A stretch of DNA of 63,478 nt from a virus: positions 1 to 63,478 of IMG/VR virus record IMGVR_UViG_3300049811_000165. One strand, given 5' to 3'. A program made the translations under genes and the position numbers. The notes under the pieces were generated by a model. That model had not been told where the DNA came from, searched no databases, and saw nothing but the letters and a program-made list of their open reading frames with translations. Of the stretch, positions 2,307 to 51,407 are shown piece by piece (position 1 is the first letter of the stretch; the number at the start of each line of letters is the position of its first letter).

Positions 2307-2381
2307 TGGCTGGTCCCCCAGGACTCGAACCTGGACTGCACGGTTTTGGAGACCGGCATCCTGCCATTGGAACAGGGACCA
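2307..2381 (-). tRNA. trnW: tRNA-Trp (anticodon CCA), with encoded 3' CCA
   Basis: Reverse complement: TGGTCCC TG TTCC AATGGCA GGAT G CCGGT CTCCAAA ACCGT GCAGT CCAGG TTCGAGT CCTGG GGGACCA G CCA. It has a 7-bp acceptor stem, a GG in the D-loop and a TTCGAGT T-loop. The anticodon arm is nearly identical to E. coli tRNA-Trp. Confidence 0.9.
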
Positions 2382-6369: not shown

Positions 6370-8943
6370 CTACACGAGGTACGCCCGGTCAGCCACCTGG
6401 GCCACCGGGAGGGAAGCGTTGCTGGTGCCGAGGGCGAGCCCCCGGATGAAGTACGGGATGTAGCCGGCAGCGTAGACCGCGATGTCCACGGTTGGAGTGC
6501 CCTCGTAGTTGAAGGCGTAGGTCGTGCCCCCGCCATCGCGCGAGTCGAGCACGGTCTCGGTGCCGGCCGTCAGGACCACCACGTCGGACCCAGCCACGAG
6601 CCCGGTGAGGGTCAGCGTCGCGGTGTCGAGCGCGTACTGGTACGCCTGGGTCGTGGTCGTGCTGGTGGTGAGCACGTAGACCGAGGTGATCGCCGTCGTG
6701 TTGGTCGTACCCGTGGTGATGCGCAGCTTGAGCTTGAAGCCCTTGAGCGCGTCGATCCCCGTCAGGGCGTTCAGGTCGGTGCCGAGCTGGGCGGCCGTGC
6801 GCTCCGCGCTCCATGCACTGAAGCCGGCGCCGTCGTTCTTGTCGATCTGGAAGGCGTAGGTGTAGTTGCCCGCCGTGCCGCCCGCCATCACGAGCGCCGA
6901 GTTCTGGAAGCCGGCGTGGCCGATCCGGTACTCGGGCATGGTGAAGGTGGCCGTCATGCCGATCGTGGGCATGTACAGGCGGCCAGCGGCAGTGAAGGCC
7001 GCGCCACCCGTGAGCGCCACCTGGGCGGCGGTATCGGTGGTGGGCTCGTTCATGAGCACGCCGATGCGCCCAGCCGTGGTCGAGGTGTGCGAGTCGAACC
7101 AGTGCGAGCCGTAGCACGCGGTCTGCGCCGTCATGGCGTGGGTCATGCCCAGCCCGGCCTGCGACACGTTGAGCATCGGGGTCACTGGCGCGTCGGCGTA
7201 GTCGCCATGCAGGTCGCGCAGCAGGACGCCCTTCGAGCTGTTGTCGCCCGAGTACAGGGTGGTCCGGGTGTTGGCCACGTAGACCCGCTTGACCTCGACG
7301 GTCTGCGCAGCGGCGCCGGCCGCCAGGACCAGGACGGTGCCGGTCTGGTTGGCCGAGCCCAGGCTGAGCTTCGAGGCGTAGGTGCCGATGTTGCGCAGCT
7401 TGATGTTCGCGCAGCCCGCCGCGCCGATGTTCAGGATCGCGTTGTAAGGCTGCTGGTTCGTGAGCCCACCGAAGGTCAGCCCGCTCATCGTGATGTTCAG
7501 GCAGTTGGACGCCAGATCCCACACCTGCATCCCGTTCGTGGTGCCCGTGGCCGCGCTCGGCGTGTCGTGGTAGATCGTCCCGGTGTAGGTCACGTTCGTG
7601 CAAGTGGTCAGGAGATGGCGCCCGCAGCCGATCGTGCAGTCGACGAAGGAGGTGTTGGCCACCCGAGTCAGGGTTGCCGAGCCGGTGGTGGCGTTGCCGC
7701 GCGCCACGCGCGAGGTGGAGTAGGTCCGGGTGAAGGTGAAGCCCGAGATGTCGGTGAGCGACATCACGTAGCGGCCCGAGGCGGCGAGCGTGGCCGAGGT
7801 CCACTTGCAGTCGGTGATCGTCCCGCCCGCGAAGCACAGCGACATGCTCAGGCCGAACTGGGCGTTGGCCGCTTCCTGGCCCACGCACACCCGAGTCAGG
7901 GTCATGGGCTGGGCCACCTCGGATAGCGAGAGCTGGGTCGAGATGCCCACGTCCGTCATGACCACCGAGTACGCCTGCGAGATGGACGGATACCAGTTGA
8001 GCAGGGCGCGGTCGATGTCGATCACGCCACCGCCCGTGGTGGTGAAGTCGTAGCGCGTGGCCAGCGTGGCGTTGGGCAGGGCGTTCGTGCCGCGCGCGGC
8101 CGTGGTGCAGACCGCAGTGAGGATGTTGGGGATGCGGATCTTGCAGCCCGCAGCCGGGACGTAGCCCACCGTGTTCGTGCCGTCCGAGCCGAACCGCAGC
8201 ACGCCAGCGGTCGAGGCCCAGCACACCTTGCCCTGCACCGCGTTGGTCGCAGTCGAGGCAGCGGCCACGAGGGATCCAGCGCACGGGTAGGGCTCGTAGA
8301 CCCCAGAGCCGGGCGCGGTCTCGACCCATACCGCCGGGTAGTATTGGACCGAGCCGTTCGTGGGGAGCTGGTAGGTCGTGGCGCTCGATCCGCTGGTGGA
8401 TCCCACCTCGAACCAGTCGCCCCGCACGCGGAAGGTGCCCAGCCGGTTGCAGTTGATCGTGGCCAGCTCGTCGCCGACCAGCTCGATGAAGCCGGCCACG
8501 TCCGCCCCGGTGGCGCTGGCCGAGATACCGGTCAGGGCTCCAGCCGCGAAGGCGCCGCCCGTGACCTGCTTGACCGTGATGAAGCCGGTCGCAGGCATGG
8601 CCGCCGCTGGCGCAGTGGGGGTCGCGTTGATGGCGCTCTGCACGCGAATGAGCTTGCCGCTCACCCCGCCCTGCGAGATCACTGTGCCATAGGCCGGGAC
8701 GTTGCCACTACCCCCGGTGTAGGCGATCTGCCTCACCTGGGTCGTGTTGATCTCGATGTCACCGCCCTTCGAGGCGTTGATGGTCATCGAGCCCATCGAC
8801 AGGGCTGCGCCACCGCCGACACCGTAGCGGGTGTCCTGGTCGATGGTGAACTTGAAGCCGTTCGTGTCGACCGTGTCACCCCCCGTGCGGGCGGGGGACA
8901 GCGCGTCGACGTTCGTGTTCGCTGAGAGGACGTAGGCGGTCAT
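6370..8943 (-). CDS. Beta-helix tailspike / depolymerase-like protein
   Basis: 857 aa, rich in Thr/Gly/Ala/Asn with recurring short beta-rung-like segments (e.g. NITMSGLTFGG, NIKLRNIGT, VMTDVGIS). This is typical of right-handed parallel beta-helix receptor-binding proteins. Confidence 0.5.
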   Translation of the reverse strand: MTAYVLSANTNVDALSPARTGGDTVDTNGFKFTIDQDTRYGVGGGAALSMGSMTINASKGGDIEINTTQVRQIAYTGGSGNVPAYGTVISQGGVSGKLIRVQSAINATPTAPAAAMPATGFITVKQVTGGAFAAGALTGISASATGADVAGFIELVGDELATINCNRLGTFRVRGDWFEVGSTSGSSATTYQLPTNGSVQYYPAVWVETAPGSGVYEPYPCAGSLVAAASTATNAVQGKVCWASTAGVLRFGSDGTNTVGYVPAAGCKIRIPNILTAVCTTAARGTNALPNATLATRYDFTTTGGGVIDIDRALLNWYPSISQAYSVVMTDVGISTQLSLSEVAQPMTLTRVCVGQEAANAQFGLSMSLCFAGGTITDCKWTSATLAASGRYVMSLTDISGFTFTRTYSTSRVARGNATTGSATLTRVANTSFVDCTIGCGRHLLTTCTNVTYTGTIYHDTPSAATGTTNGMQVWDLASNCLNITMSGLTFGGLTNQQPYNAILNIGAAGCANIKLRNIGTYASKLSLGSANQTGTVLVLAAGAAAQTVEVKRVYVANTRTTLYSGDNSSKGVLLRDLHGDYADAPVTPMLNVSQAGLGMTHAMTAQTACYGSHWFDSHTSTTAGRIGVLMNEPTTDTAAQVALTGGAAFTAAGRLYMPTIGMTATFTMPEYRIGHAGFQNSALVMAGGTAGNYTYAFQIDKNDGAGFSAWSAERTAAQLGTDLNALTGIDALKGFKLKLRITTGTTNTTAITSVYVLTTSTTTTQAYQYALDTATLTLTGLVAGSDVVVLTAGTETVLDSRDGGGTTYAFNYEGTPTVDIAVYAAGYIPYFIRGLALGTSNASLPVAQVADRAYLV

Positions 8944-8946
8944 GGG

Positions 8947-11601
8947 CTAGTTCGGCTTGATCACAGCGGTCATCCGCTTGCCGTCCTTGCCCGTGACCTC
9001 GATGGTCTTGCCTTGCGGCTTCTTGGAGTCGGCGAGCGCCTTGGCCACGTCGGACGTGCTCTGGTCCACCTTGGCGACCGCCTTGGTGACCTCGGCCGCC
9101 GTGTTGGCCACGCTCTCGGTGGTCTGGTCGACGGAAGCGGCCACCGCGTCAACGGTCTGGGCTACCCCAGCCACCGCCTGCGAGGTCTGCTCCATCGCGC
9201 CGGCCACGCCATCCAGGGCGGCGGCCACGCCTGCGGCCACGTCGGTGAGCTGCTGCTGGGTCTGGGCGATCTGGGCCAGCACAGCAGCCAGATCAGGTCC
9301 GACGGCGCCCGGCAAGGGTGCCGAGGAGGCGGCAACACCCGGGGGAACCGGGGCCGTCGGATCCATCACGCCGGCAGCGGCCGGCATACCGCCAGGGGCG
9401 GACATAGGTGCGGGTGGCGCCTGCACGCCTTGAGCGGCCAAGTCGACCTGCTTGTGCTGGTCGGCCTGCGCCATCTGGGCCTGCTCTCCAGGCTGCATGG
9501 GGGTCGTGCCCTCCACGGCCTGCTGCTGCGAGACGTTTTGCAGGTCCATCGCCACCGCATCGCGGGGGATGGCCATGCGGATCTGGTCGGCCTCGGCATC
9601 GGCCTTGTTGGCGGACGCCTCGTCCTTGGCGATCTTGGCCGCTGCTGCGCTCTTCTCCAGCTCGGCAGCCTCCGCAGCGGCAGCCTCGGCCTCAGGGTTC
9701 TTCGGCCCCTCGCCGCGCGCCTCAGCGATCAGCATGCGAACGCGCTCCAGCATCTCCTCTTTGCCCGGGAAGTCGGCCACGTCGATCAGCAGGTCCAGCA
9801 TCGAGATGGCGAACGTCGGGTTGAGCGGGGCGATCTTGGTGATCATCTCGTTCAGGCTCTCGAACATGGCCTGACGCATGGACGCCTTGAAGTCCTGCTC
9901 GTCGACCACGAAGTCCGCGCTCGATGCTGAGATGTCGTTCAGGAAGCGCACGCTGCCATCGGGCTGCTGCTCGGGCTGGTTGATCCTCACCCACTGGAAC
10001 TGGCGCCCCTTGGGGTCCGCGAGGCGGATCACCTTGGGCATGGTGTAGAACTTCTCGGCGTTGCTGAGCTGCTTCTGCCCCGAGATGGACATCGCCAGCC
10101 GGAAGTTGTCGAAGATCCCGCTCGTGGTGAGCGAGCCCTGGTCCTGGCGCGCCGCGATGGCCACGCCCGAGGTGGCATTGGTGCGCCGGCCCAGCAGCTC
10201 ATCGGTCACGCCCGAGCCGGACTGGATGAACTGCCGGTTCATGGTGACCAGCTCGGTCTGCCCTTGCAGCTCCATGTAGTCGCGACGGATGTCGAACTTC
10301 TTCGAGCCGTCCTTCATGACGATCACGCCGTTGGGCTTCGAGACCTCCTCAGCCATGTCGGCCAGGGTGTACTCGCCCTTGTCGTCGAACGCGCCCTGCT
10401 CGGTGATCACTTGGTTCACCGACAGCAGGAACAGCGCCTTGCTCATGCGCTTGTTCAGGTCTTCCTGCGGGTCGCGGATGTTGCGCACCAGCCCATAGGG
10501 CAGGCCATCACGCGAGCGGCGGAAGGCGTAGATCGGGGTGAAGGGGAACTTGTTGTGCTTGAACGGGCTCGGCAGGTCTTCGAGCAGGCAGTCGTCGACG
10601 AAGTACGAGCAGCGCACCATCATGGTCGTGCTCGGCACCACGTAGGAGCGGCCCTCCTCGACAGCGGCCACGTGAGCCCGGCTCTGCGGGTCGAACGTCT
10701 CACCATCGAAGCCGCCGCCGACCAGGGCCTCGACCTTGGCCGGCACCCTGTACCAGCACTCGTAGAGGCGGACGCGCTGACGCGAGGTGAAGGCGCCATT
10801 GACCGCGTCGGACATCACGGAGCGGTGGAAGCTGCGCACCTCACGCGAGTCGAGGCGAGAGCCCAAGTACCACAGGGCTGCGTCATCCTCGGCGGCCAGC
10901 TCCTCCTCGCCCTTGGCTGATCGCTGAAGCTGGGCCTTCTTGTCCGGGAACATGGCGCACGCCACGTCCAGGTCCAGGTCGCGCCAGCGGAACACGTAGC
11001 GCATGCCCTCACTGTCGACCGATCGATCGAGCGAGTCCTGCAAGACGTTGCGCCAGGACTCGGTGCCCGCGTAGAGCACGTCCTTGGTGGCGTCGGGACT
11101 GATCGAGTCCTCCAGCCAGCCCAGGCCAGCGACCACGGCGTCCTTGAACGCCGCGCTGCGCACGTAGGGGACGCGGTTGGCGTCCGAGATGTACTTCATG
11201 ACCTTGGTCTTGACCTCGGCATCGGTGACATCGTCGTCCGTGCGGGGCAAGACCTTCCAGTCGGTGCGGTTGCGCTTCTCGGATCCGATCACCCAGTCGC
11301 AGGTGATCTTGACCTCGTTGTAGACCAGGGGCGCTTGGCCACGGGACTGCACTACCTGGGCGTCCTCCTCTGTCCACTGGAGCCCGTCGTAGAAGTCCTC
11401 GTCGATCGCCATCTGCTGCCGGTTGTCGGCCTGACGGCTGCGCTCCTCGTTGAACCACTCCTTGAGGCGCGAGAGGTGCTTGCGCTCGACATCGCCCATC
11501 TCATCGGGATCCTGAGCAGCGCGCGCCTCCTCCTCAAGGGACGAGGGAAGGCCGAGCTGCTTGCTGCGCCCGGACACGCGCGGGGACTGCTGGATCGCCA
11601 T
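8947..11601 (-). CDS. Portal protein with a long Ala/Gln-rich C-terminal extension
   Basis: 884 aa. The N-terminal region has QQMAIDEDFYDGLQWTEEDAQVVQSRGQAPLVYNEVK, the portal signature D.DFY.G.QW. Its size and position are as in P22/N4-type portals. Confidence 0.85.
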   Translation of the reverse strand: MAIQQSPRVSGRSKQLGLPSSLEEEARAAQDPDEMGDVERKHLSRLKEWFNEERSRQADNRQQMAIDEDFYDGLQWTEEDAQVVQSRGQAPLVYNEVKITCDWVIGSEKRNRTDWKVLPRTDDDVTDAEVKTKVMKYISDANRVPYVRSAAFKDAVVAGLGWLEDSISPDATKDVLYAGTESWRNVLQDSLDRSVDSEGMRYVFRWRDLDLDVACAMFPDKKAQLQRSAKGEEELAAEDDAALWYLGSRLDSREVRSFHRSVMSDAVNGAFTSRQRVRLYECWYRVPAKVEALVGGGFDGETFDPQSRAHVAAVEEGRSYVVPSTTMMVRCSYFVDDCLLEDLPSPFKHNKFPFTPIYAFRRSRDGLPYGLVRNIRDPQEDLNKRMSKALFLLSVNQVITEQGAFDDKGEYTLADMAEEVSKPNGVIVMKDGSKKFDIRRDYMELQGQTELVTMNRQFIQSGSGVTDELLGRRTNATSGVAIAARQDQGSLTTSGIFDNFRLAMSISGQKQLSNAEKFYTMPKVIRLADPKGRQFQWVRINQPEQQPDGSVRFLNDISASSADFVVDEQDFKASMRQAMFESLNEMITKIAPLNPTFAISMLDLLIDVADFPGKEEMLERVRMLIAEARGEGPKNPEAEAAAAEAAELEKSAAAAKIAKDEASANKADAEADQIRMAIPRDAVAMDLQNVSQQQAVEGTTPMQPGEQAQMAQADQHKQVDLAAQGVQAPPAPMSAPGGMPAAAGVMDPTAPVPPGVAASSAPLPGAVGPDLAAVLAQIAQTQQQLTDVAAGVAAALDGVAGAMEQTSQAVAGVAQTVDAVAASVDQTTESVANTAAEVTKAVAKVDQSTSDVAKALADSKKPQGKTIEVTGKDGKRMTAVIKPN

Positions 11602-15986: not shown

Positions 15987-16144
15987 CTCGGACCCCACAG
16001 CATGACGGCCGAGGTGATGCCACCAGCGAAGATGCTGAGGCCCACCAGGAACGCGCCAGTGCGGCGCAAGTGCGGCACGCCAGTGCCAACCAGCGACACG
16101 CCCACGAGGGCGCACAGCGCGATGTCAACCCAGATTCCCAGCAT
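15983..16144 (-). CDS. Small membrane protein with two predicted TM helices (53 aa; absent from the ORF track)
   Basis: Hand translation gives MLGIWVDIALCALVGVSLVGTGVPHLRRTGAFLVGLSIFAGGITSAVMLWGPR*. There are two hydrophobic spans separated by HLRR. It explains the implausible N-terminus of track ORF 15795..16115. Confidence 0.55.
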   Translation of the reverse strand: MLGIWVDIALCALVGVSLVGTGVPHLRRTGAFLVGLSIFAGGITSAVMLWGPR

Positions 16145-16421
16145 CTCTCAGCCCCCCCTTGTAGCCCTCTGCATACGCCTCCTCGACCAGGGCGATGATC
16201 TGCTCCGGCGGGGCGGCGACCACCTCCAAGACGTAGTCGCTGCCGGTCTCGTTCCGCACGGCGAGCCGCTTGAGGATCGTGTCGGCCAGGGTCTGCCGCA
16301 TCTTGCTCACGGCCCAGCCGCGCGCGTCATCGTAGCCCAGCCGGCCAACGAGCCCGGTCACCGACACCACGACGTGCGAGATCGGGATCTTGGCGGCGAG
16401 TCTCGACAGCGCGGGGATCAT
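16125..16421 (-). CDS. Hypothetical protein (98 aa)
   Basis: Track ORF with ATGA overlap to the upstream gene. Confidence 0.6.
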   Translation of the reverse strand: MIPALSRLAAKIPISHVVVSVTGLVGRLGYDDARGWAVSKMRQTLADTILKRLAVRNETGSDYVLEVVAAPPEQIIALVEEAYAEGYKGGLRDAGNLG

Positions 16422-16657
16422 TCCAGCTCCCCGCGCAGACCCTTGCGGCCCGACTCGATCGCCTCGAACAGGACTTGGATCTCGTCGGAGTCGAACGTGA
16501 CCTCGCCCTTGCCCAGGTGCTCGCCGTCTTGCTTGATCGCCAGGAACTCGCCCGCTCCGTCGTCGCGGATCTCGACGTGCGTGGTCGAGTCGTCGTAGAG
16601 CGACTTGTCTTCGCGCTGTATCGTGAAGCGCGTTGGCCGGACGATGAAGGGCCTCAT
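16418..16657 (-). CDS. Hypothetical protein (79 aa)
   Basis: Track ORF with ATGA overlap to the upstream gene. Confidence 0.6.
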   Translation of the reverse strand: MRPFIVRPTRFTIQREDKSLYDDSTTHVEIRDDGAGEFLAIKQDGEHLGKGEVTFDSDEIQVLFEAIESGRKGLRGELE

Positions 16658-16860
16658 CGCGCCTCCCCGTCGTAGAGCAGGATGATCATCGGGTCGTTGT
16701 GGGGCGTGAAGATCACCCCGCCGTGGGTGCGGTACGCGACCGGCTGACCGAAGAACGGCTCAGCGATGGCGCGGTCATTGTTCTCCCAGCGCACGTTGGA
16801 GCGCGGCACACGGGCGCCGTGCATGGGTCCGCCGATGAAGCAGCATGTGACGATGGACAT
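16654..16860 (-). CDS. Hypothetical protein (68 aa)
   Basis: Start moved to the ATG at 16860. It is the first gene after the 120-nt gap that follows the TerL nuclease half. Confidence 0.5.
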   Translation of the reverse strand: MSIVTCCFIGGPMHGARVPRSNVRWENNDRAIAEPFFGQPVAYRTHGGVIFTPHNDPMIILLYDGEAR

Positions 16861-16981
16861 TTGGTCCCCTATGGTTGAGCCCCACGTCCGGTAGGGTGAG
16901 ATGAATGGTGAGTGCATAGGTGCAATTGTCGAGTGCGGCTATCACAGCTCGCAACTCCCTTTTTCACCATCCGACGAACGG

Positions 16982-17689
16982 TCAGGCGGTGCGCCAGTTG
17001 GCGGCCTTGTGGCGCGCCGTGCGCTCGCGTGGCCGGGTGCGGCCGTAGCGCCGGGCCATCATGGCGTAGCGTGACGCGCTGAGCACGTCGTCGCGCTTCT
17101 TGACGATCTGGCCATCCTTGCGGTGGTAGAGGCGGAACTCCTCCAGCCACAGCGGGCAGGTCGAGAACACCTTCCAGCGGCCAGTGAGCATGCGGTCCAG
17201 CATCTCGCTGACGCCCGCCTCGACGCCGTTGCCGCCATCCGGGAAGGTGGCGCGCTCGTCCATCATCCTGAAGCCGTGGGTGCGGTACTGGTTGGCCAGC
17301 TCCTCGCCCGAGCCCTTGTCGTGCTGCAAGCCGTCGTGCGGCCACGCCCAGGGCAGCCAGTCGAGATCCCAACCCGAGAGCGCCACGCGCGCGCCGACCG
17401 GCGCCAGCTCGCTCTGCCTGAAGTCCTTGGTCACGTAGATCACGTCGGTGTCGCGGTCCCACGCGAGGCGCGCCGCCGCGAACGGGTGGTCCCAGCCGAA
17501 GTCCATCGCCCCGAGCTGCACCCAGTGGTCCGGGATCGGGATCGGCTCGATCGTGATGTCGTCCTCGGGCACTTGGCCAAACACCATACCCGAGCCGAGC
17601 ACCGGGAGGCCGCGCGAGCGCGCCAACCGCAGGTGCTTGGGGGTCGACGCCAGAAGCTCGCGCTTGGTCTTCTCGGACAGGTGGGGCAC
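16982..17689 (-). CDS. terL: Terminase large subunit, C-terminal nuclease half (separate ORF)
   Basis: 235 aa with a GTG start. LSEKTKRELLASTPKHLRLARSRGLPVLGSGMVF is the typical ATPase-nuclease linker. It is followed by RNase-H-like acidic motifs GAMDFGWDHP, PWAWPHDG and DDVLSASRYAMM. Confidence 0.85.
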   Translation of the reverse strand: MPHLSEKTKRELLASTPKHLRLARSRGLPVLGSGMVFGQVPEDDITIEPIPIPDHWVQLGAMDFGWDHPFAAARLAWDRDTDVIYVTKDFRQSELAPVGARVALSGWDLDWLPWAWPHDGLQHDKGSGEELANQYRTHGFRMMDERATFPDGGNGVEAGVSEMLDRMLTGRWKVFSTCPLWLEEFRLYHRKDGQIVKKRDDVLSASRYAMMARRYGRTRPRERTARHKAANWRTA

Positions 17690-17734
17690 GTCGTCACTAG
17701 TCCCACCCGGCCATGACGAGGTAGCGACCTTCGC

Positions 17735-18256
17735 CTACTTCAGGCATGTCGCACTCCTCGTCATGGCACAGGTGGGTTCCTTGCTTCCTTTGCGCATGTT
17801 TTCCCTCGCGGGTAGTAGCGAGAGGTTCCACCACACGTGCAACCCACCCCTCGACAGGGGCTGCACGTGGTCGACATGAACGTCGACGCCTGACTGCTTG
17901 TATGCCACCGCGAGGGCGTAGATCGTGTTGATGATCTCGCACCTCTTGTATGGCGTGGCGGCCCGCTGCGCGGCCTTTCTCACCCGCTGCAACTTCGCCT
18001 TGTTTGCCTTGGCCTCCGGCTTCGCCCGGGAGCGACGAGCCTGTTCCTTGACGCGCCCTGGATTATCTTGCCTCCACTGGCGGTTGGCTTCGGCGCTCGC
18101 CTTGCGGTTTCTCGTCTCCCTGTCGCACACCTTGCAGTACGAGTGCAGCCGCGCCGAACGCTTCCCCTGGCCGGTGGTGTAGGCGTACTGGTGGAACTCG
18201 CCCGCCAGCTTGACCTCCCCGCAGCGCGGGCAACGCTTGGTGGCCGCGACGCCCAT
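17735..18256 (-). CDS. HNH endonuclease (paralogue of 19465..19935)
   Basis: Start at the ATG at 18256 (TGATG overlap). It has N-terminal CPRCG...CKVC Cys pairs and a C-terminal VDVHVDHVQPLSRGGLHVWWNLSLLPARENMRKG HNH motif. Confidence 0.8.
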   Translation of the reverse strand: MGVAATKRCPRCGEVKLAGEFHQYAYTTGQGKRSARLHSYCKVCDRETRNRKASAEANRQWRQDNPGRVKEQARRSRAKPEAKANKAKLQRVRKAAQRAATPYKRCEIINTIYALAVAYKQSGVDVHVDHVQPLSRGGLHVWWNLSLLPARENMRKGSKEPTCAMTRSATCLK

Positions 18257-18696
18257 CAATTTAGCTCTCCATGCGGGACGAAGTACGCAGCCTCTCGGCC
18301 GCCGTGGGCGCGGCGCCACTCGGCGCGCTTGGCGTCAGCCCCACGAATGGAGCCGACCACCCTGTACTCCGGGGCAGTCCCGACCACCAGCACGAACAGG
18401 TCGTCGTCCGAGTCGTCGTCGCGGACGATCAGCTCGTACTCCGGCTTGGAGCGAGTCCTGATCTGGACGCCGCCGGCAGAGTCCTCGCCCTTGAAGGAGT
18501 TGACCGACCCCGGCCAGAAGACGCCGACAGCCTTCGAGTACGCCAGCTCGCCCAGCGCGCCCTCGATATGCAGTTGCCAGCCGCCAGCCGCAGCGCCGTG
18601 TCGGTCGGACCGGCCAGCCTTGAGCGACGAGACGTGCCGCAGCACGCCGACGTTGGCCGCCATCACCATCTCGGCGGGCGTGAGGGTCACCTTCAT
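18256..18696 (-). CDS. Conserved phage protein, possible PD-(D/E)xK-type nuclease fold
   Basis: 146 aa. Its ATG overlaps the TerL-N stop (ggaATGAag), and a strong AAGAAGGAG SD sits inside the TerL-N 3' end. Pattern: GW.LHIEGALGELAYSK...D..GGVQIRTR...LIVRDDDSDDDLFVLV. Confidence 0.5.
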   Translation of the reverse strand: MKVTLTPAEMVMAANVGVLRHVSSLKAGRSDRHGAAAGGWQLHIEGALGELAYSKAVGVFWPGSVNSFKGEDSAGGVQIRTRSKPEYELIVRDDDSDDDLFVLVVGTAPEYRVVGSIRGADAKRAEWRRAHGGREAAYFVPHGELN

Positions 18697-19475
18697 TCCA
18701 TCTCCTTCTTGGCCTCTTCGGAGAACTGCTGAAGCAGCTCGCCCGGCAGGAAGAGCATCACGGTGTCGCTGGCCCCTTCGAGCGGCGTGTAGGTCATGTA
18801 GACGATCCCGTCGACCGTTGCCGTGCGGATCTTGCACTCGTCGTAGACCTCGACCGGGGGCTCCTCGTCGAGCCAGATCACGTGCTTCTCGGTGCCCTCG
18901 AACGCGCCGCGCCCCTGCTGGTAGCTCTTCAGGCCGAGCTTGGACCAGAAGCCCGAGATGTGGCGGATCATCACCGTGTCGGCCAGATCCTGCACGCCCT
19001 GCTTCCAGGTGATGTCGCCGATCGCCTCGCGCGGCACCAGCCCGCTGCCCGAGAAGGTCTTCTTGCCCTCGCGGTACGTCACCTTCCCGAAGAGCTTCGA
19101 CTGCACGATGTCGCGGGTCGTCTCGTTGGTCTTGCCGGCCGCCCAAGCCTCGATCTCGTGCGGGAAGCGCCGCCCGGGCCACCACTTCGGATAGTCGCCG
19201 GTCAGGTGCTGCACGGTCTCGTAGCCACCCGCGCCCTCGGTCTTGCCGATCCGGTTGGCCGCCATGAAGCACCGCTCACGGTAGCTCGCGCCGGCCTTGA
19301 AGAACTCCATGTGCTTCGGGTACAGCTCGCGGCGCAGCGGCCCGGTGTCGGGGTAGTAGCTCTTGATCCGGTTCGAGTTCTGGGCGTCGTACTGCTGCTC
19401 CAGGAGGCGCACGAGCTGTATCTTCTCCTCCACACTCAGCCTGCTGAGGTCGAGGTTGCCGAGATCATGGGTCAT
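18693..19475 (-). CDS. terL: Terminase large subunit, N-terminal ATPase half (separate ORF)
   Basis: 260 aa. It has a Walker A-like FMAANRIGKTEGAG, a Walker B HVIWLDEEP and the coupling motif VYMTYTPLEG. It ends ...FSEEAKKEME* where intact TerL proteins continue into the linker. Confidence 0.85.
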   Translation of the reverse strand: MTHDLGNLDLSRLSVEEKIQLVRLLEQQYDAQNSNRIKSYYPDTGPLRRELYPKHMEFFKAGASYRERCFMAANRIGKTEGAGGYETVQHLTGDYPKWWPGRRFPHEIEAWAAGKTNETTRDIVQSKLFGKVTYREGKKTFSGSGLVPREAIGDITWKQGVQDLADTVMIRHISGFWSKLGLKSYQQGRGAFEGTEKHVIWLDEEPPVEVYDECKIRTATVDGIVYMTYTPLEGASDTVMLFLPGELLQQFSEEAKKEME

Positions 19476-19935
19476 GGCGCGCGCCCTTGGCTAGGTTCAC
19501 CTTGGCCGGAACGATCGTCAGGTTCTCGTGCACGTGGAGGCCAGTGACAAGCCGCCCACGCAGCGGAACCACATGGTCAACGTGCACGTCACACCCGGCT
19601 TTCCTCCACGCCCCAGCGACGGCGTACACGGCCGAGATGACGCCCTTGTCCGCCCACGGCGGAGTGCACGAGTGGCGATCGGCGCGGTAGCGCGCGGCCC
19701 ACGCGCAGACCTTGTCCCTGTTCTCGCTCCGGTACCGGCTCATCTGGGCGAGCCGTGCGTCCTTGTTTCGCTCGTAGTGGGAGTGTGACCGGGAGGCCAT
19801 CTGCGGCAGGATCTCGCCCCTCTTTGCGGCGTACCGAGCCCGCGCCTGCGCGAGCTTCTTCTCGCGATTGGCGAGGTAGTAGGCCCGCTTCTTCGCAAGA
19901 ATCTCGTCCCGGTGCCGCTCGTAGTAGCTATTCAC
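19465..19935 (-). CDS. HNH endonuclease
   Basis: The probable GTG start at 19935 overlaps the TerS 3' end. It has repeated basic R..YY..N..K segments, then CDVHVDHVVPLRGRLVTGLHVHENLTIVPAKVNLAKG. Confidence 0.75.
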   Translation of the reverse strand: MNSYYERHRDEILAKKRAYYLANREKKLAQARARYAAKRGEILPQMASRSHSHYERNKDARLAQMSRYRSENRDKVCAWAARYRADRHSCTPPWADKGVISAVYAVAGAWRKAGCDVHVDHVVPLRGRLVTGLHVHENLTIVPAKVNLAKGARHDP

Positions 19936-20584
19936 CCTTGCCCCCCTGCGGGGCTGGCAGTTCTCCCTCTTCCTTCTTCTCGGGGGTGATGCCCTTGAGC
20001 TTGGCCAGCAGAGCGACCAGCCGGGCATCAGCCTGCGCCTCGGACATCTGGGGCAGGGGCTTGTTGCCCGAGGTGAGGTCCAGCTTCTCGCCGTAGGCGC
20101 GGGGCTTGAACTTGGCGATGATCCACTGGAGCGCGTTGATCCGGGTGCGCTTGTCCTGCACGGCGCCCGAGTCGTACTGCCCGAAGATCGTGAGCGGCAC
20201 CGGCTCGGCCGAGAGCTGGCGCAGCTCGGACATCATGGCCTCGGCCGCCATCTCCCGGGCCAGCTCGTAGGCTCGCACGCGGGTCTCGTCCTCTTCCATC
20301 CAGCGCAGCACGCCGCTGGCATGGGTGCGGGTGAGCTTGCCGGCGCGCGAGCGGGGCTTGCCGGTGGCGGCGATGTGGTTCTCGTCCAGCTTGGCGGCGA
20401 TGTCGCGCAGCGAGTACCCGTCGATGATCGCGTTCATCACCTCCTCGGCATCGAGGTTCTTCACCTCGTGAGCGGTGATGTCGAGGGGCGGCATGGTGCG
20501 GTAGGGCACCGCCTGGGGCGGCGAGCCACCGCCGTCCAGGTGCTCCTTCATGATTTTCTCGCGAGTCTTCTTCTGCCCAGCCAT
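19928..20584 (-). CDS. terS: Terminase small subunit
   Basis: 218 aa from the ATG at 20584 (TGATG overlap with the upstream gene). It has an HTH-like N-terminal part and DKRTRINALQWIIAKFKPRAYGEKLDL, a typical TerS motif. It sits directly upstream of TerL. Confidence 0.75.
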   Translation of the reverse strand: MAGQKKTREKIMKEHLDGGGSPPQAVPYRTMPPLDITAHEVKNLDAEEVMNAIIDGYSLRDIAAKLDENHIAATGKPRSRAGKLTRTHASGVLRWMEEDETRVRAYELAREMAAEAMMSELRQLSAEPVPLTIFGQYDSGAVQDKRTRINALQWIIAKFKPRAYGEKLDLTSGNKPLPQMSEAQADARLVALLAKLKGITPEKKEEGELPAPQGGKGE

Positions 20585-21042
20585 CACTTCACCTTCACGA
20601 AGTCGACGCCGCCGGTCGAGGCGTCGGTGTGTACGTTGGCCAGCTTCACGGCGCGCCACGCCGTCGTCCCAGCGGCGATCGCTCCCAGGGCGAACTCGGA
20701 GCCCGCGCCGGCCGTGATCGGCGCCTTGACGGGCAACCAGTCGCCCATCGGATTGACGGCCCAGCACTTGCCGGTGCCGACCTCCGCCACGATCGCCAGG
20801 ATCCCCGAGCCGCTGGAGTAGCCGTAGCCGGAGCAGTCCGGGAACGCCTCGCCCTCGAACAGCGCCTCGGCCGCACGCTGGCAGAAGAACGAGTCGCCCG
20901 TGAAGGCGGCCACGAAGTCCCGGAAGCCGCGCCCCGGGATCTTGCCCCGGTGCAGCTTCTTCACCCCCTTGATCCAGAGGGTGCCCGAGCACGCGGCCCG
21001 GTCCACCGCCAGATACCGCCCGTCGAATGCGATCGTCGTCAC
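20584..21042 (-). CDS. Ntn-hydrolase of the proteasome beta / HslV type
   Basis: GTG start at 21042, 4 nt after GGAGG, gives fMet-Thr-Thr-Ile-Ala-Phe-Asp-Gly (compare HslV MTTIVSVRRNG). IKGVKKL aligns with the HslV Lys33 region, AAFTGD with AGFAGG, and AGAGSEFALGAIAAG with AIGSGGPYAQAAA. Confidence 0.6.
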   Translation of the reverse strand: MTTIAFDGRYLAVDRAACSGTLWIKGVKKLHRGKIPGRGFRDFVAAFTGDSFFCQRAAEALFEGEAFPDCSGYGYSSGSGILAIVAEVGTGKCWAVNPMGDWLPVKAPITAGAGSEFALGAIAAGTTAWRAVKLANVHTDASTGGVDFVKVK

Positions 21043-40790: not shown

Positions 40791-41038
40791 TGGAAGACCC
40801 GCTCACCCCGTCGCTGCTGCGCCTTGCGATCGACACCGCGATCAGGGGCGACACCATGACCTTCTACGCCGAGCGCGACTGGGAGCCCGGGGCGGGCTTC
40901 CCGGGCTACAGCGTGCGGTCGACGGGCGGGCTGCTGCCCGACTACAAGATCATCGAGTGCGACCCGTTCGACCTCGTGGCCTACCTTGTCGACGCCGGGG
41001 TGGGCAAGAGCATGCCCATCCCCGTTCGTCGCCTATAG
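40790..41038 (+). CDS. Hypothetical protein (82 aa)
   Basis: Start moved to the ATG at 40790 (TGATG overlap). Its stop overlaps the stop of the convergent giant gene within CTATAG (41033-41038). Confidence 0.55.
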   Translation: MEDPLTPSLLRLAIDTAIRGDTMTFYAERDWEPGAGFPGYSVRSTGGLLPDYKIIECDPFDLVAYLVDAGVGKSMPIPVRRL

Positions 41039-44000
41039 CTTCTTCCTCAAGGTCTCGCTGGCCTTCTCCAGCTTCTGCTTCTCGCGCTCGACGCGGCGGT
41101 CGAACTCCTGCTGGGTGATCCCGTTGCGCGACAGCTCTCGGGCGAGGCCCTTGATGTTGTTCTGGATCTCGCGCTGGGCCTGCTGGAAGTCCTGCACCGC
41201 GCGCAGCCGCAGCGCATCCTCGGGGTAGGCCCGAGCCTTCACGCCGACTGACGACAGCGCCGCCGTGGCGAGCGATTGGTCGCGCCCGAAGGCGTCGGTG
41301 CGGCCGGTGCCGGCGTCAAGCAGGCCGGTCCAGGCGTAGGTCTGGAGCTGGCCACGGTCCGTGCCAGGGATGATCGTGCCCGGCCCAGGCAGCGGCAGGT
41401 TCGGGGCGAACGCCTTGAACAGGTGGTCTACCACCTTCGCCATCGCCTCGGCCTTCGTGTCGGTGTCCTTCACGATCTCGCGCCCGGTGAAGCTGGACTT
41501 GTTCGAGAAGAACTCCATCATGATCGAGAGCGGGCCGGAGACAGACAGCCAGCTCGGCACAGGGAGGGCCGCCTGCGACTGGTTCAGGTCGACCATGTCC
41601 CCGCCCGGCACCCAGCGGCGAGCGTCCAGGAACACGGGCGAGCCGTGCGCGTCGTTCCACGGCATGCGGATCAGGCGCGGGAACACGCCAAGCAGGCGCC
41701 CATCCAGCTCGTCGGGCAGTAGCTTGCGCTCGCGGTCCTCGTCGTCCCCACCCAGGCCGAGCATGGCGTAGGCCGCCGCGTTGAGGGCGTAGCCCACGGC
41801 GAGGTACTTGGCGAACTTCCACGGCTTGTGGGCCGCCGCGTTGAGCATCATCGGGATCGCCCGGTACGAGAAGGCGATGAACGGGAGCACCGAGCGCCGC
41901 GCGGCCTGGATCCAGGGGGCGTTGATGTTGTAGTCGAGGAAACTGTCGCGCGCCGCCTTGCCGGCCTCGCGGTCAGGCTTGCCCGCCTCGGTCTCGCGCA
42001 TGAACTTCGCGAGACGGAAGACGGAGTCCTCGCTCTGGTACGCGCGCATCATCAGCTCGAACGGCTTCTTCACCCAGGCCGCCTTCTCCATCGCGGCCTT
42101 GCCAGCGGTGAGCACATGGCCCTGCATGGCGAGGTTGACGATCTGGCTCGCCTTGAGCAGGCCCAGCTCGTTGTTCTCGACCTTCTCCAGCTCGGCAAGC
42201 AGGGGCTCGATGTAGAGCTGGCTCAGCTCGATGTTGGCGAAGGAGCCGTAGTCCGCGCCGCTGTCCTCGAAGCGATCGATCAGGGTCTTGGCCGCTGCGT
42301 CGCCGCGCTTGGCCGCCACGATCACGCGCATCGCCTTGACGATGTCGCGCGCCCGCACCTCGGCGAGGTCGGCCAGCACGAAGTTGGACATCACGTTGTT
42401 GGTGTGGACCGCAGGCGAGAGCGCCGTCTTCGACAGCTTCCAGTTGCGCACGAGCGCATCCCACGCCGCGCTCGTGGCGTCCGCCGGCCGCGCGAGCTGG
42501 TTGCGGATGTCGTTCCACACCGGGGCCGGGATGATCTTGCCCGCCAGCGCGCCGTACTTCTTCAGCTTGGTGCCGGCGATCTCGGTGTCCGGCACACGCA
42601 CGAACTCGTCGGGCTTGAACGCCTGGGTCGCCCAGTACCCGGTCGACGGGTCACCGATGATCTTGTCGGCCGGCGCATCCTCGGTGGCGTACTTCTCGGC
42701 CACCCACTTCAGGAACTTGGCGTTCTCGATGTCGCGGATCCCGTTGATAACGGTCTTGGCGAAGGCGAAGCGCACCTCCTCGATCTCGCCCAGCTTGTGC
42801 CGCTCCTCGGCGGTCATGTCGCGCCAGAGCCCGACCTTGTTGCCCGGGCGGTCCAGCCAGCGCGCCTCCCAGGTGTCGGCCTTGGTGTAGCCCTTCGGGC
42901 CGGCGGCGCCGTGCTTGACGTAGCGCACCGCCGTGACCTTGCCGCTGGGGCTGCGCGCCTCCCATCGGTCGAGCAGGTCGCCTTCCTTGATCTCGTCGAT
43001 CGCCTGCACGAGGGCGTCCGCCTTCACGTCGTGGCGGATGCCGCGCCCCTTGAAGTTCTCGGCCCGGATGGCTGCCGCGCGCTTGGCTGCTGCGCCGGCC
43101 GCGCCGGGCTTCATGTGCGCCTCGTAGATCCGGTGCAGGTAGGCCATCTTGTTGCGCTCGTAGCTGTCGGGCGTGAGCAGCCCGACAGACACCGCCTCGC
43201 GGCCGAGCGTGTCGATCAGCGACTTCATGTTGCGCAGCGTGGCGCGGTCGTCGGCCGGGATCTGGGCCAGGAGTTGCTGCTCCAGCTCGGTGTCCGGCTT
43301 CTCGGCCATCCACAAGTAGGCCACCCGGGACTGCTCGCGGGTGAGCCCAGCCAGCGAGTCCAGCAGGTTCTTGGTCTCGCGCAGCACCTTGTTGACCGCC
43401 GCCGTTCGGTCGATCTTGGCGTCCAGGTACATGCCCTCCAGGCCGAAGTCGGACACGAGCCCGTGCTTGACCCGGTCCGGGACGATCCTGGCGCCCTGCC
43501 GGATGAGGTAGTCGTAGGCTGGGCCGGAAAGCAGCCGCCCTACCCAACCCATGCCGAGCTTGAATGCGCCGTCCAGAAGGCCCGTCCTGGCCGCCGGAGA
43601 GGCATTCGCTGGGGTCTGGGTAGCCCGGGATTGCAGGCCGGCGGCGCGGACAAACTGGACGGGCACGTCCGAGTTGAGGACCACGGCCACGCCGGACAGG
43701 CCGTCGACGTAGCCGTCGTAGCCCGCCTTCAGCAGGGCCATCTCCCAGGCGTTGCGGGTGCCCGCCTCGTCGCGGATGAAGATCCCGGACTGGGTCCAGC
43801 CCACCGGCTCGACCTTGATCGAGGGCGAGATCCCGGATTTCCAGAGGTTCGCCAGCCGCACCTCGTGCCGGTTCGGGCCGAGCCCGCCCTCGCGCAGGGG
43901 GATGGTGCCGTTGTCGCGCTGGGTGTAGAAGTAGACCCGGCGGCGGATCTCCTCCGGCGCGCCGCTCAGGCGCTCAGCCTCGGCGCCACGGATGCCCTGG

Positions 44001-47000
44001 CCGTACATGAAGCCCGACAGCTCGGAGAGCTGCCCGTGACTCCAGTGCCACGCATCGACCGACACCGAGCCCGGCGCCGGCTTGCGGCGGCTGAACTCTA
44101 CGACGCCGGATCCTCCGCCAGTTGCTGCAACGGAGTGGAGCCCGAGTCGTCGACGAGGCCCTTGGGCAACGGGCTCTCCGCTCCCTGCTCCACCGTCCCG
44201 GCCAGCGCCTGATAGACCGAGGTCTTCATGGGCGCCTTGTTCGTCTTCATCCAGTTGATGATGTGCTGCTGTCCAACTTGGAGCATTGATTCCGTCGGCA
44301 TCTGCCACCTCCTTCAGCTCTTCGCGAACCCGGTCCAGGGTCATGCGGCCCCGCTTGTACTGATTCCACAGCGCCTCCACCGGGGCCGAGGTGGTGCGCT
44401 TGTCTGCCGCCCGGAACATGCCACGGACGGCTTCCCACGTGATCGACTGCATCTCGCGCGGGAGGATACCACGTTCCGCCGCCGCGCGCCGGTACGCCTC
44501 GGCGAAGATCCCGTAGGTGCCGTTCGACCCGATGATGGTCGAGGTGACCGGCCCGCGCTCGCCCTTCGTGTTGCCGCCGAAGGCGTTCTTGACCTCCTCG
44601 GAGTCGGACGACATCGGACGCAGCGTGGCCACGCCGACCGCGTGAGTGTCGACGGTGATCGCGTGCGGGTCGCTCGGATCGATCAGGTTGGTGTAGAAGT
44701 TGCGCACCTTGTGGCCGCTGCCGAGCTGGGTCGAGATGTTCTCCATCGAGCCATCGCGCAGGACGGACACCGCAGCGGCGATCGTGCCGTTGCTGCCCCA
44801 CTGCACAGAGGCCGGGGTCTCGCCGTCGTCATTCATCGCGAGGCCAAGGGTCTCGCCCTCGGGCGAGATCGCGCGGTAGGTGCGCGCGTTGTACGTCTCG
44901 TCGAAGGAGCGGATCCAGACCGCAGCTTCCAAGGGGTTGCTCAGCTCGGAGAGCTTCTTCCCCGCGATCTTGTTGGCCAGCTTGATCTGCGTCGCGCGCG
45001 CATCCGCCGACTGACCGGTGCGATCGGCCACCGCCGCCATGAACATCTCGTGCGTGGCGGTGAAGTCCTGGCGATGCTTCCAGATGTCGAGCACGCGCCG
45101 GGCGAGCGACACGTTCACGAACCAGTCGCGCTGCGGGCTGAGCACCGCGATGAGCGCGGCGCCCTGCTCGTGCGAGATGCCATAGAACTTGCTCATCTGG
45201 CGGGCGATCTTGTTGCCGCCGACGTACCAGAGCTTCGCGCGCTCTCGCACGGCCGGCAGGGTCTGGTCGTAGAGCCAGAGGATGTTCGACTTGAAGTGCT
45301 CGACCGCCGCCTCGATGGTCTCGGCCGGCGTGCGGCCCGGCTTCGGGCGGATGTTCGCCATCTTCGCCATCAGCTCTGCGTGGATCTGCACGCCCTTCGG
45401 GCCGAGCCCGAGGATGTGGTCGATCCCCACCGTGATGCGCTGCTTCATCGGGTCGAGCCACGTGCGCTCGGCGGTGGCCGTCACGGGCGCGGTGCTGATC
45501 TGCGTGCCGGTGCGCTCGGGCGAAAGCGAGATCCGCATCAGCGCGCGCGCTTGATCGCGCAGCCCGTCGAGCGCATCCTGGTCCGCTTCGGGCAGCGAGT
45601 CGCGCGCAGCCTTGTAGTCCTTCTTGTCGAGGAAGGAGAAGCCGCGCTGCGCCACCGACACCTTGGCCGGACCGAAGTGCGCTTGCAGCTTGGGCAGGGA
45701 CTTCGCCGCGTCGTCGACCAGGAACTCCATCATGCCGTCGCCGGAGCTGGTGAACCCGATGAACTCCTTCTTGTTGCCCGGCAGGGACTTGTACAGCGCC
45801 TCGCCGTCCTGGCCGTCAGCCAGCTCGACCACGATCGCGTCCTGCGTGCCCTTGGCGGACACGTGCAGGCCGGCGTCCTGATCGAACACGTAGGCCACCG
45901 CCGCCGCGATGCGCTGAGCCTCGACCGTGGATGCGCTTGGCAGCTTCAGTGCGACCGAGGGATTCACGTCGCCCATCCAACCGCCGACCGTGGACTGCAC
46001 GGTGGCCTTGGCGCTGGTGAACAGCTCGGCCACCGCCGGCACGATCGCCTTGGACAGTGCGAGCGTGATCTCCGCGCGGCGCGCGAGCGGCAGCTTGTCC
46101 CACTCGCCCTTGATCGCAGCGTTGCCGCCCGGAGCCACCTCGAAGGCGGCGTTCTCGGCCGACCACCGCTTCTTCGAGAAGAGGATGTTCTTTGACTGAG
46201 CGTCGAAGCCGCCGCCGTTCCCTATAGCAGACTTGATCTGCTCGGGGCGGAAGGCGACATATAGCGTCTCGCTGGTCGAGTCGCTGTCGACGATCACCCC
46301 GTCATGCCCGTCATTGATCGCACCCTCGATGATCTCCTGCTTGCGGATTCCGTACCCGTACTTCCAGTCCTCCAGGTATGCGATCGGTCCCATCCCCTTG
46401 TCGTCCGTCAGGCGGAGGGGGTTGCGGATCGACAGGTAAACAGGAATCACGTTCGGGCTACCGCCATCCCTTCCGGCGCGCTTGGCGTAGGAGCTTGCTC
46501 CGCCGTACTCTCCCGGGCTGCTGGTGAAGAAGAAGCCGCTCTTGTCGTCCCCAAACGTGGCCCCAATGCGATCGGGGTCGAACTCAGAAAAGTCTGACGC
46601 AGTGCCGTGATACACCACCTTAGGATTGCCATCGGCGCCCACAACCTTGCTGTCACCGAACCACGCCTTGAAGGCGGGGGTGGTCGCCTTCTCTGCGCGA
46701 CTCATCAGCATGTCGGCCGCCTCATCGCTCATCGACATCAGCTTCGCGTGCCATGCCTTCGTCTCGGCGTTCGAGATGTTCTCGCCGCGCGCCACGGCGC
46801 CACGAGCGCGCGTGACCAGCTCGATCAGGTCCGAGTCGGACATGCGCAGGTTGATGCCCAGCTTGCGCAGAACGTCGCGGATCAGCGAGACAGCCTTCGT
46901 GAGGAGGCTGTGCTTCTCGCCGGTCTCTGCCATGCGGGCGAGGACTTCCATCGCGCCGATGAGCTGGTTGTCGCCGTACTCCTGGCGCACGTTCTCCATC

Positions 47001-51349: not shown

Positions 51350-51407
51350 CAGGCCACCTCCAATGAGAGCGACCCATACTACTGCCAGGACTACTGGTTG
51401 GAGGAGC

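Follow-up and report, generated by a model that had tools for sequence, protein, structure and literature searches.

The virus recorded in IMG/VR as IMGVR_UViG_3300049811_000165 encodes its large terminase subunit, TerL, in two genes, terL-N and terL-C, and 16 codons into the second of them the reading frame is broken by a block of seven nucleotides (nt) that starts with a stop codon and lies directly 3' of an HNH endonuclease gene. The whole stretch analysed here, positions 1 to 63,478 of that record, is called the window in the following. Our overall reading, to which we assign a probability of about one half, is that HNH homing-endonuclease cassettes in podovirus terminase genes carry such a 7-nt gap, that ribosomes would cross it by hopping over the stop from one codon to an identical copy, that this would be a second, independent and simpler endonuclease-linked bypass after that of mobA and gene 60, and that the TerL ATPase would be made from two polypeptides throughout the clade. 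From the comparison of related sequences it is very likely that some recoding takes place across the gap, and hopping is the form of recoding that we favour, with clearly less assurance. Expressed more broadly, an HNH cassette carrying a short gap that would be decoded by hopping or by a +1 shift is the best-supported explanation of the locus.

All coordinates without further specification refer to the window, in which the whole terminase region is located on the minus strand (aa, amino acids; ORF, open reading frame):

19928..20584, minus strand: terS, small terminase, 218 aa (Pfam Sf6_terminase, E 2.9e-16)
19465..19935, minus strand, GTG start at 19935: HNH-1, free-standing HNH endonuclease gene, 156 aa, between terS and terL-N
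18693..19475, minus strand: terL-N, larger part of the TerL ATPase domain, a stand-alone 260-aa protein
18256..18696, minus strand: ORF1, 146 aa, uncharacterised phage protein family (phrog_18407, E 1.6e-28)
17735..18256, minus strand: HNH-2, 173 aa, free-standing HNH endonuclease of a homing-endonuclease-like family
17754..17759, minus strand: Shine-Dalgarno (SD) sequence GAGGAG, 6 nt 5' of the terL-C ATG, read directly from the sequence
17700..17747, minus strand: terL-C leader, 16 codons, MPEVGEGRYLVMAGWD, last beta-strand region of the ATPase domain
17693..17699, minus strand: coding gap TAGTGAC, 7 nt, without counterpart in the alignment with the closest relative, L004
16982..17692, minus strand: remainder of terL-C from the resume codon GAC 17692, linker helices and RNase H-like nuclease domain

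Within the leader the motif GGG-TGG (17708..17703) precedes the putative take-off codon GAC (17702..17700), and the gap consists of the stop codon TAG (17699..17697), a single T (17696) and the putative landing codon GAC (17695..17693). The junction reads TGG GAC TAG T GAC GAC GTG CCC CAC, and deleting TAGTGAC from it restores AGWDDVPHL. Between the stop of terL-N at 18693 and ATG 17747 lie 946 nt that hold two other genes, the final 13 nt of HNH-2 being shared with the start of terL-C. A first-pass annotation of the window had already placed TerS, both HNH genes, TerL-N, ORF1 and a last ORF beginning with GTG 17689, and this ORF map was borne out, as were the overlaps of the ORF1 ATG with the TerL-N stop (ATGA) and of the HNH-2 ATG with the ORF1 stop, and the common frame of the HNH-2 stop and GTG 17689, which are 15 codons apart.

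The same annotation had expected that nothing is missing between TerL-N and the ORF from GTG 17689 to the stop at 16982 (Terminase_6C, E 1.3e-20). When the two ORFs were aligned with intact TerL proteins, namely gp39 of EBPR podovirus 1, those of two other GenBank phages and later also L071 and L083 (L-numbers denote related loci), the conserved strand GRFVVMATWDD turned out to have a counterpart in neither of them. The counterpart is encoded at 17747..17700 as MPEVGEGRYLVMAGWD, in another frame than the rest of terL-C and followed by TAG TGA.

An uninterrupted version of this site is present in L004 (IMGVR_UViG_3300049489_000398), which runs collinear with the window for about 11 kb and shows 92-96% amino acid identity in TerL. 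L004 carries ORF1 but no HNH-1, HNH-2 or 7-nt insert, and its TerL-C is a single ORF opening with MPEVGEGRYLVMAGWDDVPHL, the first 16 codons of which are 100% identical to the leader in the window; the gap-free site of this type reads TGGGATGACGTGCCCCAC. In place of the 565-nt HNH-1 segment of the window L004 has 60 nt, and in place of the 519-nt HNH-2 segment it has 6 nt. Owing to the HNH-1 insertion the 3' end of terS in the window is also unlike that of L004. Two other relatives, L094 and L333 (95% identity in TerL-N), carry HNH-2 at 91% identity together with the identical gap and have neither ORF1 nor HNH-1, the latter being missing also from L095. From this pattern of presence and absence it follows that ORF1, HNH-1 and HNH-2 are three independent insertions and that none of them is needed for packaging. 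The first-pass annotation had considered that the HNH proteins might take part in DNA cutting as in HK97-like systems; as relatives with 92-96% identical TerL lack one or both of the HNH genes, these are dispensable and such a role is unlikely.

The PHROG families matched by both HNH genes carry the annotation endonuclease VII or HNH endonuclease, and some records label their phage homologues as homing endonucleases. HNH-1 matches phrog_26577 (E 6e-20) and phrog_1035 (annotated endonuclease VII, E 1e-9), and HNH-2 matches phrog_1035 (E 5e-22) as well as Pfam HNH (E 1e-3, below the gathering score), with a catalytic core reading VHVDHVQPL..N..LLPARENMRKG that contains the HNH motif. Their proposed paralogy was confirmed by 46% identity across the 63-aa catalytic core (E 4e-16). 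Of the properties expected for a homing endonuclease, both the HNH motif and a presence/absence polymorphism with precise empty sites were found. Between the window and L094 the synonymous divergence (dS) is 0.034 for HNH-2 and 0.116 for terL-N, and the start of terL-C is 100% identical at the amino acid level; the lower divergence of HNH-2 and terL-C would fit a recent endonuclease-driven exchange.

Pattern scans and look-ups led to nine distinct versions of the gap, all at exactly this codon (the sequence following TGG is given unless TGG itself is shown):

window, L094 and L333: GAC TAG T GAC GAC GTG, 7 nt
L332: GAC TAG T GAC GAT GTG, 7 nt
L091: GAC TAG T GAC GAT GTT, 7 nt
L018: GAC TAG T GAT GAT GTC, 7 nt
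L106: GAC TAG C GAT GAC GTC, 7 nt
L095-L104: GGC TGA A GGC GAT GTA, 7 nt
L108: TCC TAG C TCC GAT GTG, 7 nt
L109: TGG TGA CT TGA GAT GAC, with TGG itself as take-off codon, 8 nt
L034 group: AAT T GAC GAT GTA, 4 nt

Eight of the nine variants lie directly 3' of a full-length HNH-2 homologue (34-91% identity), and the ninth, the L034 group, has kept no more than a remnant of about 65 nt, which is homologous to the L091 HNH gene at its 3' end; no gap was found in any of about 47 distinct HNH-free junction sequences. In all nine a stop (UAG or UGA) stands immediately 3' of the take-off codon, and in seven the codon before the stop matches the codon 7 nt further on, with three different codon identities being involved (GAC/GAY, GGC/GGC and TCC/TCC). 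In each of these seven a single tRNA reads both codons, and such a covariation of codons 7 nt apart is characteristic of matched take-off and landing codons. For the Gly ahead of TGG every gap variant (9/9) uses GGG, as opposed to 5 of 49-52 gap-free sequences. Three characteristics of bypassing, an untranslatable block with flanks that are contiguous in relatives, matched codons and a slow codon in the A site, are found at this site. A search for the exact gap pattern in GTDB genomes found none, and wider scans, with GGGTGG N4-13 GAYGTNCCNCAYYT in viral contigs and with an ATGGC... pattern in GTDB, yielded no additional terL cases, most of the loci retrieved being unrelated. A protein search with HNH-2 gave only 4 matches, owing to a word prefilter. 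Gene callers missed the gap-bearing terL-C completely in L333 (3633..4517) and truncated it to 201 aa in L095 (3421..4026), so that such loci will be under-annotated in the databases.

Substitution patterns argue for translation on both sides of the gap. Between L091 and L034 the leader codons show seven synonymous and one non-synonymous differences, which was matched by none of 20,000 random-substitution simulations (0/20,000), and from the resume codon on the synonymous pattern moves to the other frame, with 16 synonymous and 4 non-synonymous differences. Judged by these patterns, purifying selection acts on the 16-codon leader in one frame and on the downstream gene in the other. For TerL-C, the ratio of non-synonymous to synonymous divergence (dN/dS) is 0.17 between the window and L095, two gap-bearing lineages with different gap sequences and a dS of 0.58, and 0.16 between gap-free and gap-bearing sequences, with overall values of 0.09 to 0.17 against L004 and L095. 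HNH-2 is even more diverged between the window and L095 (dS 0.98, dN/dS 0.30), which argues against a recent transfer and for an old arrangement that has been maintained.

Based on these data we propose that the HNH-2 lineage consists of free-standing homing endonucleases travelling with a short untranslated gap located 16 codons into terL-C. The gap breaks the most conserved DNA of terL-C, GCN GGN TGG GAY GAY GTN CCN CAY, which in analogy to MobA of T4 is the probable target of the endonuclease, and the insert would shield its carrier from self-cleavage. Two HNH-bearing loci without gap have altered motifs here, WSDVPHL in L030 (TGG AGT GAC GTC) and SCGWNDVAHL in L329 (LISCGWNDVAHL), as would be expected if the conserved DNA were the target and had been changed in these carriers. 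Ribosomes would start at ATG 17747, make MPEVGEGRYLVMAGWD and stall with UAG in the A site; the peptidyl-tRNA-Asp would then leave GAC and re-pair with the identical GAC 7 nt further on, and decoding would resume at GAC GTG CCC to give the wild-type AGWDDVPHL with VMAGWDDVPHLSEK as the predicted junction peptide. In general, a +7 hop would result in AGW[D/G/S]DVPHL of canonical length. A possible stimulator of the hop is the SD-like GGGUGG, which directly precedes the take-off codon.

Several points weigh against this proposal. All of its mechanistic steps are deduced from comparative sequence analysis, and the take-off and landing codons mismatch at one codon position in L034 (AAT..GAC, 4-nt gap) and L109 (TGG..TGA, 8-nt gap). 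Several of the gap variants are related by descent, so that neither the nine out of nine GGG codons nor the five GAC/GAY matches count as independent events. The direct repeat XYZ-NNNN-XYZ might reflect the origin of the insert instead of acting as a decoding signal. Furthermore, the predicted hairpin GGGUGGG/CCCACCU has a mean energy of -18.1 kcal/mol compared to -14.8 kcal/mol in gap-free relatives (standard deviation 3.6) and is not clearly stronger. Finally, a +1 frameshift at the stop would restore the frame for the 7-nt and 4-nt gaps at the cost of one or two additional residues, and in the window ribosomes could restart internally at the GTG that encodes the Val.

The first of these two alternatives, a programmed +1 frameshift of the prfB type, survives best, and we nevertheless regard it as unlikely. 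Holding GAC in its P site and UAG in its A site, the ribosome would slip by one base, read on in AGU GAC GAC GUG and make AGWD-SD-DVPHL, which contains two extra residues and has VMAGWDSDDVPHLSEK as junction peptide. A net shift of +1 is exactly what the 7-nt and 4-nt gaps need, the stop always follows the shift codon (with UGA-C in L034 representing the prfB context), the +1 frame is open across the gap in 8/9 variants, and the 4-nt variant (AAT TGAC GAT), having no matching landing codon, fits a shift better than a hop. GGGUGG is invariant in gap-bearing alleles, and in our own alignment it would pair with the 16S 3' end in the SD-like register that prfB uses relative to the P site. A shift leaves the covariation of codons 7 nt apart unexplained, however, and tRNA-Asp would be unable to re-pair on ACU. 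L109 needs +8, and because TGA keeps its target frame closed up to the resume codon, a shift by +/-1 fails there and only an 8-nt bypass can work. The motif AGWxDVPHL moreover shows no length variation among the 49-52 gap-free sequences, and extra residues at this position therefore look disfavoured.

Distinctly less probable is the absence of any recoding, as implied by the first-pass annotation, which had TerL-C start at GTG 17689. The protein would then have to function without the YLVMAGWD strand, and the 16-codon ORF would be an untranslated relic or encode a separate micropeptide. GTG 17689 is indeed the first start codon in frame, GGGTGGGA is found 9-16 nt 5' of it, and L108 and L332 have the same GTG. 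It is, however, the Val codon of AGWDDVPHL, and GTG is no commoner there in gap-bearing types (3/9: window, L108 and L332) than in gap-free relatives (20/49). In L091, L095 and L109 no ATG, GTG or TTG is found in the TerL-C frame from the upstream stop to codon +20, and in L018, L034 and L106 start codons in this frame occur only at implausible positions. Also the omitted strand belongs to the Pfam ATPase domain, and the leader keeps its ATG, SD and amino acids in gap-bearing lineages despite many synonymous changes, with ATG 17747 as the ancestral start.

We consider it very improbable that the gap-bearing terL-C genes are simply defective, either through sequencing or assembly errors or as recent HNH invasions that survive only because co-infecting phages complement them. 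In favour of such a reading, homing endonucleases are able to spread even at a fitness cost, most of the gap-bearing contigs are short metagenome fragments, and the dS values for HNH-2 and TerL-N between the window and L094 suggest a recent exchange. Against this stand the recurrence of the identical window-type junction in independent Logan and ENA assemblies and the 4-nt variant, which was found in at least 7 contigs or assemblies, complete-length contigs (53.9 kb and 106.9 kb) among them, and which persists after the decay of its HNH gene. In addition, nine diverged variants all keep both frames intact, and TerL-C is constrained between the gap-bearing lineages of the window and L095, whose HNH genes have diverged even more.

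Three further candidates were rejected: a group I intron (no Rfam match at E<=1 in 16000..21000, with ORF1 and HNH-2 filling the insert), an intein (stops at 18693, 18256 and 17735 and frame changes between the ORFs) and a split intein of the 'fractured gene' type (TerL-N ends right after the FLPG loop, with no extra intein-sized segment). Introns and inteins had already been judged unlikely in the first-pass annotation.

The separation of TerL into two genes is not restricted to loci with an HNH gene. In an IMG/VR scan with TerL-N we obtained 80 related loci, and in 75 of these TerL-N stops shortly after the FLPxG loop and TerL-C has its own start codon, in most relatives opening with MPE[IV]xxS[KR]YLVxAGWDDVPHL. 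The relative frame of terL-N and terL-C can be any of the three, stop/start overlaps (..GATGCCTGA..) are common, and the spacing ranges from overlap up to more than 5 kb. One continuous terL ORF was found only in L071, L083 and more distant GenBank phages. A search of 5.8 billion proteins gave 3649 matches, and the best 120 of them are all stand-alone proteins of 228-286 aa, including prophage copies in Cupriavidus and Comamonas genomes that are called 'terminase large subunit domain-containing protein' by NCBI. The intact 623-aa TerL of L002 (MW202478.1, 2977..4845) has an insert of about 140 aa, CFHGDTEV...LIVHNC, in its nuclease domain that looks like a mini-intein.

This distribution separates two parts of the first-pass model, in which an inserted nuclease cassette had split TerL at the boundary between ATPase and nuclease. 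That TerL consists of two polypeptides is supported by the common layout of the 75 relatives, and the genes between the halves are indeed of nuclease type and have empty sites in close relatives such as L004. The cassette is not the cause of the split, however, because a two-gene TerL prevails in the clade with or without cargo. The position of the break also had to be revised from the interdomain linker. While TerL-N by itself matches Terminase_6N at profile positions 1-153 of 215 (E 4e-9), the match in an in silico TerL fusion covers positions 1-208 of 215 and reaches 54 residues into TerL-C, and the structure of the P22 gp2 nuclease domain (4DKW; E 2.5e-62 with the L004 orthologue) aligns only from TerL-C residue 48. 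According to these Pfam and PDB alignments, on which the split position is based (an AlphaFold2 single-sequence model of the fusion had a predicted local distance difference test score, pLDDT, of 34), the break is located about 50 residues before the nuclease domain and inside the ATPase domain, so that TerL-C supplies the last ATPase strand and helices. In this phage clade terL is natively two genes, with terL-N encoding most of the ATPase and terL-C its last beta-strand and helices together with the nuclease, and both proteins presumably reassemble by strand complementation. Compared with the Terminase_6 (T4/P22/Sf6-like) large terminases both domains are present and the single polypeptide is not.

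The two halves also differ in their affinities. TerL-N matches the 261-position profile phrog_31467 (E 1.5e-94), had no PDB sequence match and is 49% identical to EBPR podovirus 1, whereas TerL-C of the window reaches only 33%, and in many relatives a TerL-N at 55-60% is paired with a TerL-C at 33-39%. These unequal affinities suggest that TerL-N and TerL-C have recombined independently. In the literature we found neither an intron-less two-gene TerL nor a gap of this kind described, which is not a proof of novelty.

The short junction between terL-N and terL-C seems to serve as a landing site for selfish and accessory genes, which would be ORF1 and HNH-2 in the window, with HNH-1 as a third insertion placed between terS and terL-N. 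Cargo found between the halves in relatives comprises a GH5 cellulase-domain protein, beta-helix tailspike-like proteins, the N4 gp49/Sf6 gp66 family, a Tad2-like protein and PDDEXK_14. The first three belong to accessory modules of 1.5-5.3 kb that part terL-N from terL-C in L060, L074, L080, L043, L061, L063 and L069. In L070 (about 6615..7830 of the locus) a Tad2-like (anti-Thoeris) gene lies between the terminase halves (Pfam E 4.6e-23), and L339 and L340 have a gene of the Acb2/Tad1-hairpin family just 5' of terS, so the terminase region appears to collect anti-defence genes. L338-L340 and L095-L104, relatives at 75-84% identity, have other small genes in the same junction, among them a putative PDDEXK_14 endonuclease of 135 aa (E 5e-11); in L095 an unrelated 136-aa ORF is found 5' of its HNH gene.

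For ORF1 the label 'PD-(D/E)xK-like' given in the first-pass annotation is a guess and was left unproven by our analysis. None of its homologues, about 60 (61) proteins, has a Pfam domain, and ORF1 itself gave no Pfam match even at E<=10. Its AlphaFold2 model (pLDDT 90) found no significant fold match in the PDB, the best being PvuII (E 0.58) and HincII, all with E>0.5, and resembles many uncharacterised viral structures. A profile alignment by hhalign with the PDDEXK_14 gene of L339 gave a probability of 0.3%. At other loci, homologues of ORF1 adjoin DnaB/NinG or SbcCD-like genes.

Elsewhere in the window we observed a P22-like portal gene at 8947..11601 and, on the minus strand at 41033..51538, a 3501-aa ORF with an N-terminal SLT transglycosylase, an ART-PolyVal ADP-ribosyltransferase and DUF7178 domains, which looks like a giant polyvalent and probably ejected virion protein. 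Megablast with the terminase region found no close relative among GenBank phages. The only tRNA of the contig is a phage-encoded tRNA-Trp with the anticodon CCA (2307..2381, minus strand). UGG directly precedes the take-off codon and in L109 is the take-off codon itself; a link between this tRNA and the recoding site is speculation.

If the proposed hop is true, the minimal 7-nt bypass would be a compact and tractable model for take-off and landing: there are nine natural variants to compare, in which the take-off and landing codons co-vary and the SD-like GGGUGG is invariant. It would also allow a direct test of whether bypass inserts evolve as immunity devices for homing endonucleases. For the mechanics of the packaging motor it matters that a large clade of phages and prophages builds it with a TerL cut inside the ATPase domain, with cargo of up to 5 kb between the halves. 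As these are presently called 'terminase large subunit domain-containing protein' or hypothetical protein, the split is also relevant for annotation. It bears as well on phylogenies built from TerL and on defence systems by which TerL is sensed.

Natural programmed bypassing is represented by very few systems, T4 gene 60 and its relatives, the byps of yeast mitochondria and the Hau3 terminase, and its origin is debated. The gene 60 bypass and the MobA cassette were reportedly described by Huang et al. in 1988 and Bonocora et al. in 2011. In T4 the HNH-family endonuclease MobA splits the topoisomerase gene, an insert near the start of the downstream cistron blocks nicking by MobA, and the gene 60 bypass insert can outlive the loss of the endonuclease (Manning & Atkins, bioRxiv 10.1101/2022.08.31.505936). 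Both in T4 and in the window an essential phage gene is present in two cistrons with a gene for a free-standing HNH-family endonuclease at the split, and a frame-breaking insert lies a few codons into the downstream cistron within highly conserved sequence. Other shared features are a stop immediately 3' of the take-off codon, a matching landing codon, an insert that remains when the endonuclease has decayed (here in the L034 group) and the existence of relatives that are split without endonuclease or gap. The host gene is terL here and a topoisomerase gene there, and the gap has 4-8 nt compared to 50 nt; the 16-residue leader is too short for the exit-tunnel signal of gene 60 and there is no clear take-off stem-loop. 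Unlike in T4, the split is clade-wide and mostly endonuclease-free, and decoding across the gap is inferred from sequence. We saw no similarity in sequence between the window and mobA or the cassette of gene 60, although no comparison was aimed at it.

In phage Aeh1 nrdA is reportedly split by mobE, which leaves the gene in pieces as a result of a free-standing homing endonuclease (PMC3045599). The similarity to the window lies in an essential enzyme that is split within a domain and made as two reassembling polypeptides, with an HNH-family gene at the break; the difference is that most split terL loci are endonuclease-free and that a homing endonuclease as the cause of the split would here be only hypothetical. 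The terL of Jug phages is interrupted by group I introns or inteins (PMC12880540), and together with the TerL of MW202478 this suggests terL as a frequent target of selfish elements that bear endonucleases, whereas in the window there is neither a ribozyme nor an in-frame intein and the halves would stay separate proteins. With the HK97-type HNH protein gp74, which assists the terminase in cutting, the window shares an HNH gene beside the terminase genes, but here it is dispensable.

The terminase gene of the Streptomyces phage Hau3 contains a 10-nt bypass, and blocks of 7 nt occur in related prophage terminase genes (PMC10732093, RNA Biol 2023, citing Smith et al. 2013); the junction peptide of g6/g7 was detected by mass spectrometry in E. 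coli with UUA replaced by UAA (PMC10732093). Hau3 and the window have in common that frame-disrupting blocks of 7 or 10 nt are located in a large-terminase gene with flanks that are contiguous in relatives, that the conserved junction argues against extra residues and that a 5' SD-like stimulator is proposed. In Hau3, however, which infects an actinobacterial host and has a TerL of another family, the blocks open with the rare 'hungry' A-site codon UUA as a sensor of the host state in place of the true stop UAG or UGA found here, and the paper makes no mention of a homing endonuclease (PMC10732093, with 0 occurrences of 'HNH'). The proposed role is regulation in Hau3 and protection of an endonuclease target in the window. 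The window would therefore combine both systems, with a short stop-triggered gap as in the terminase of Hau3 that is linked to an endonuclease as in gene 60 and located in an already split terminase gene.

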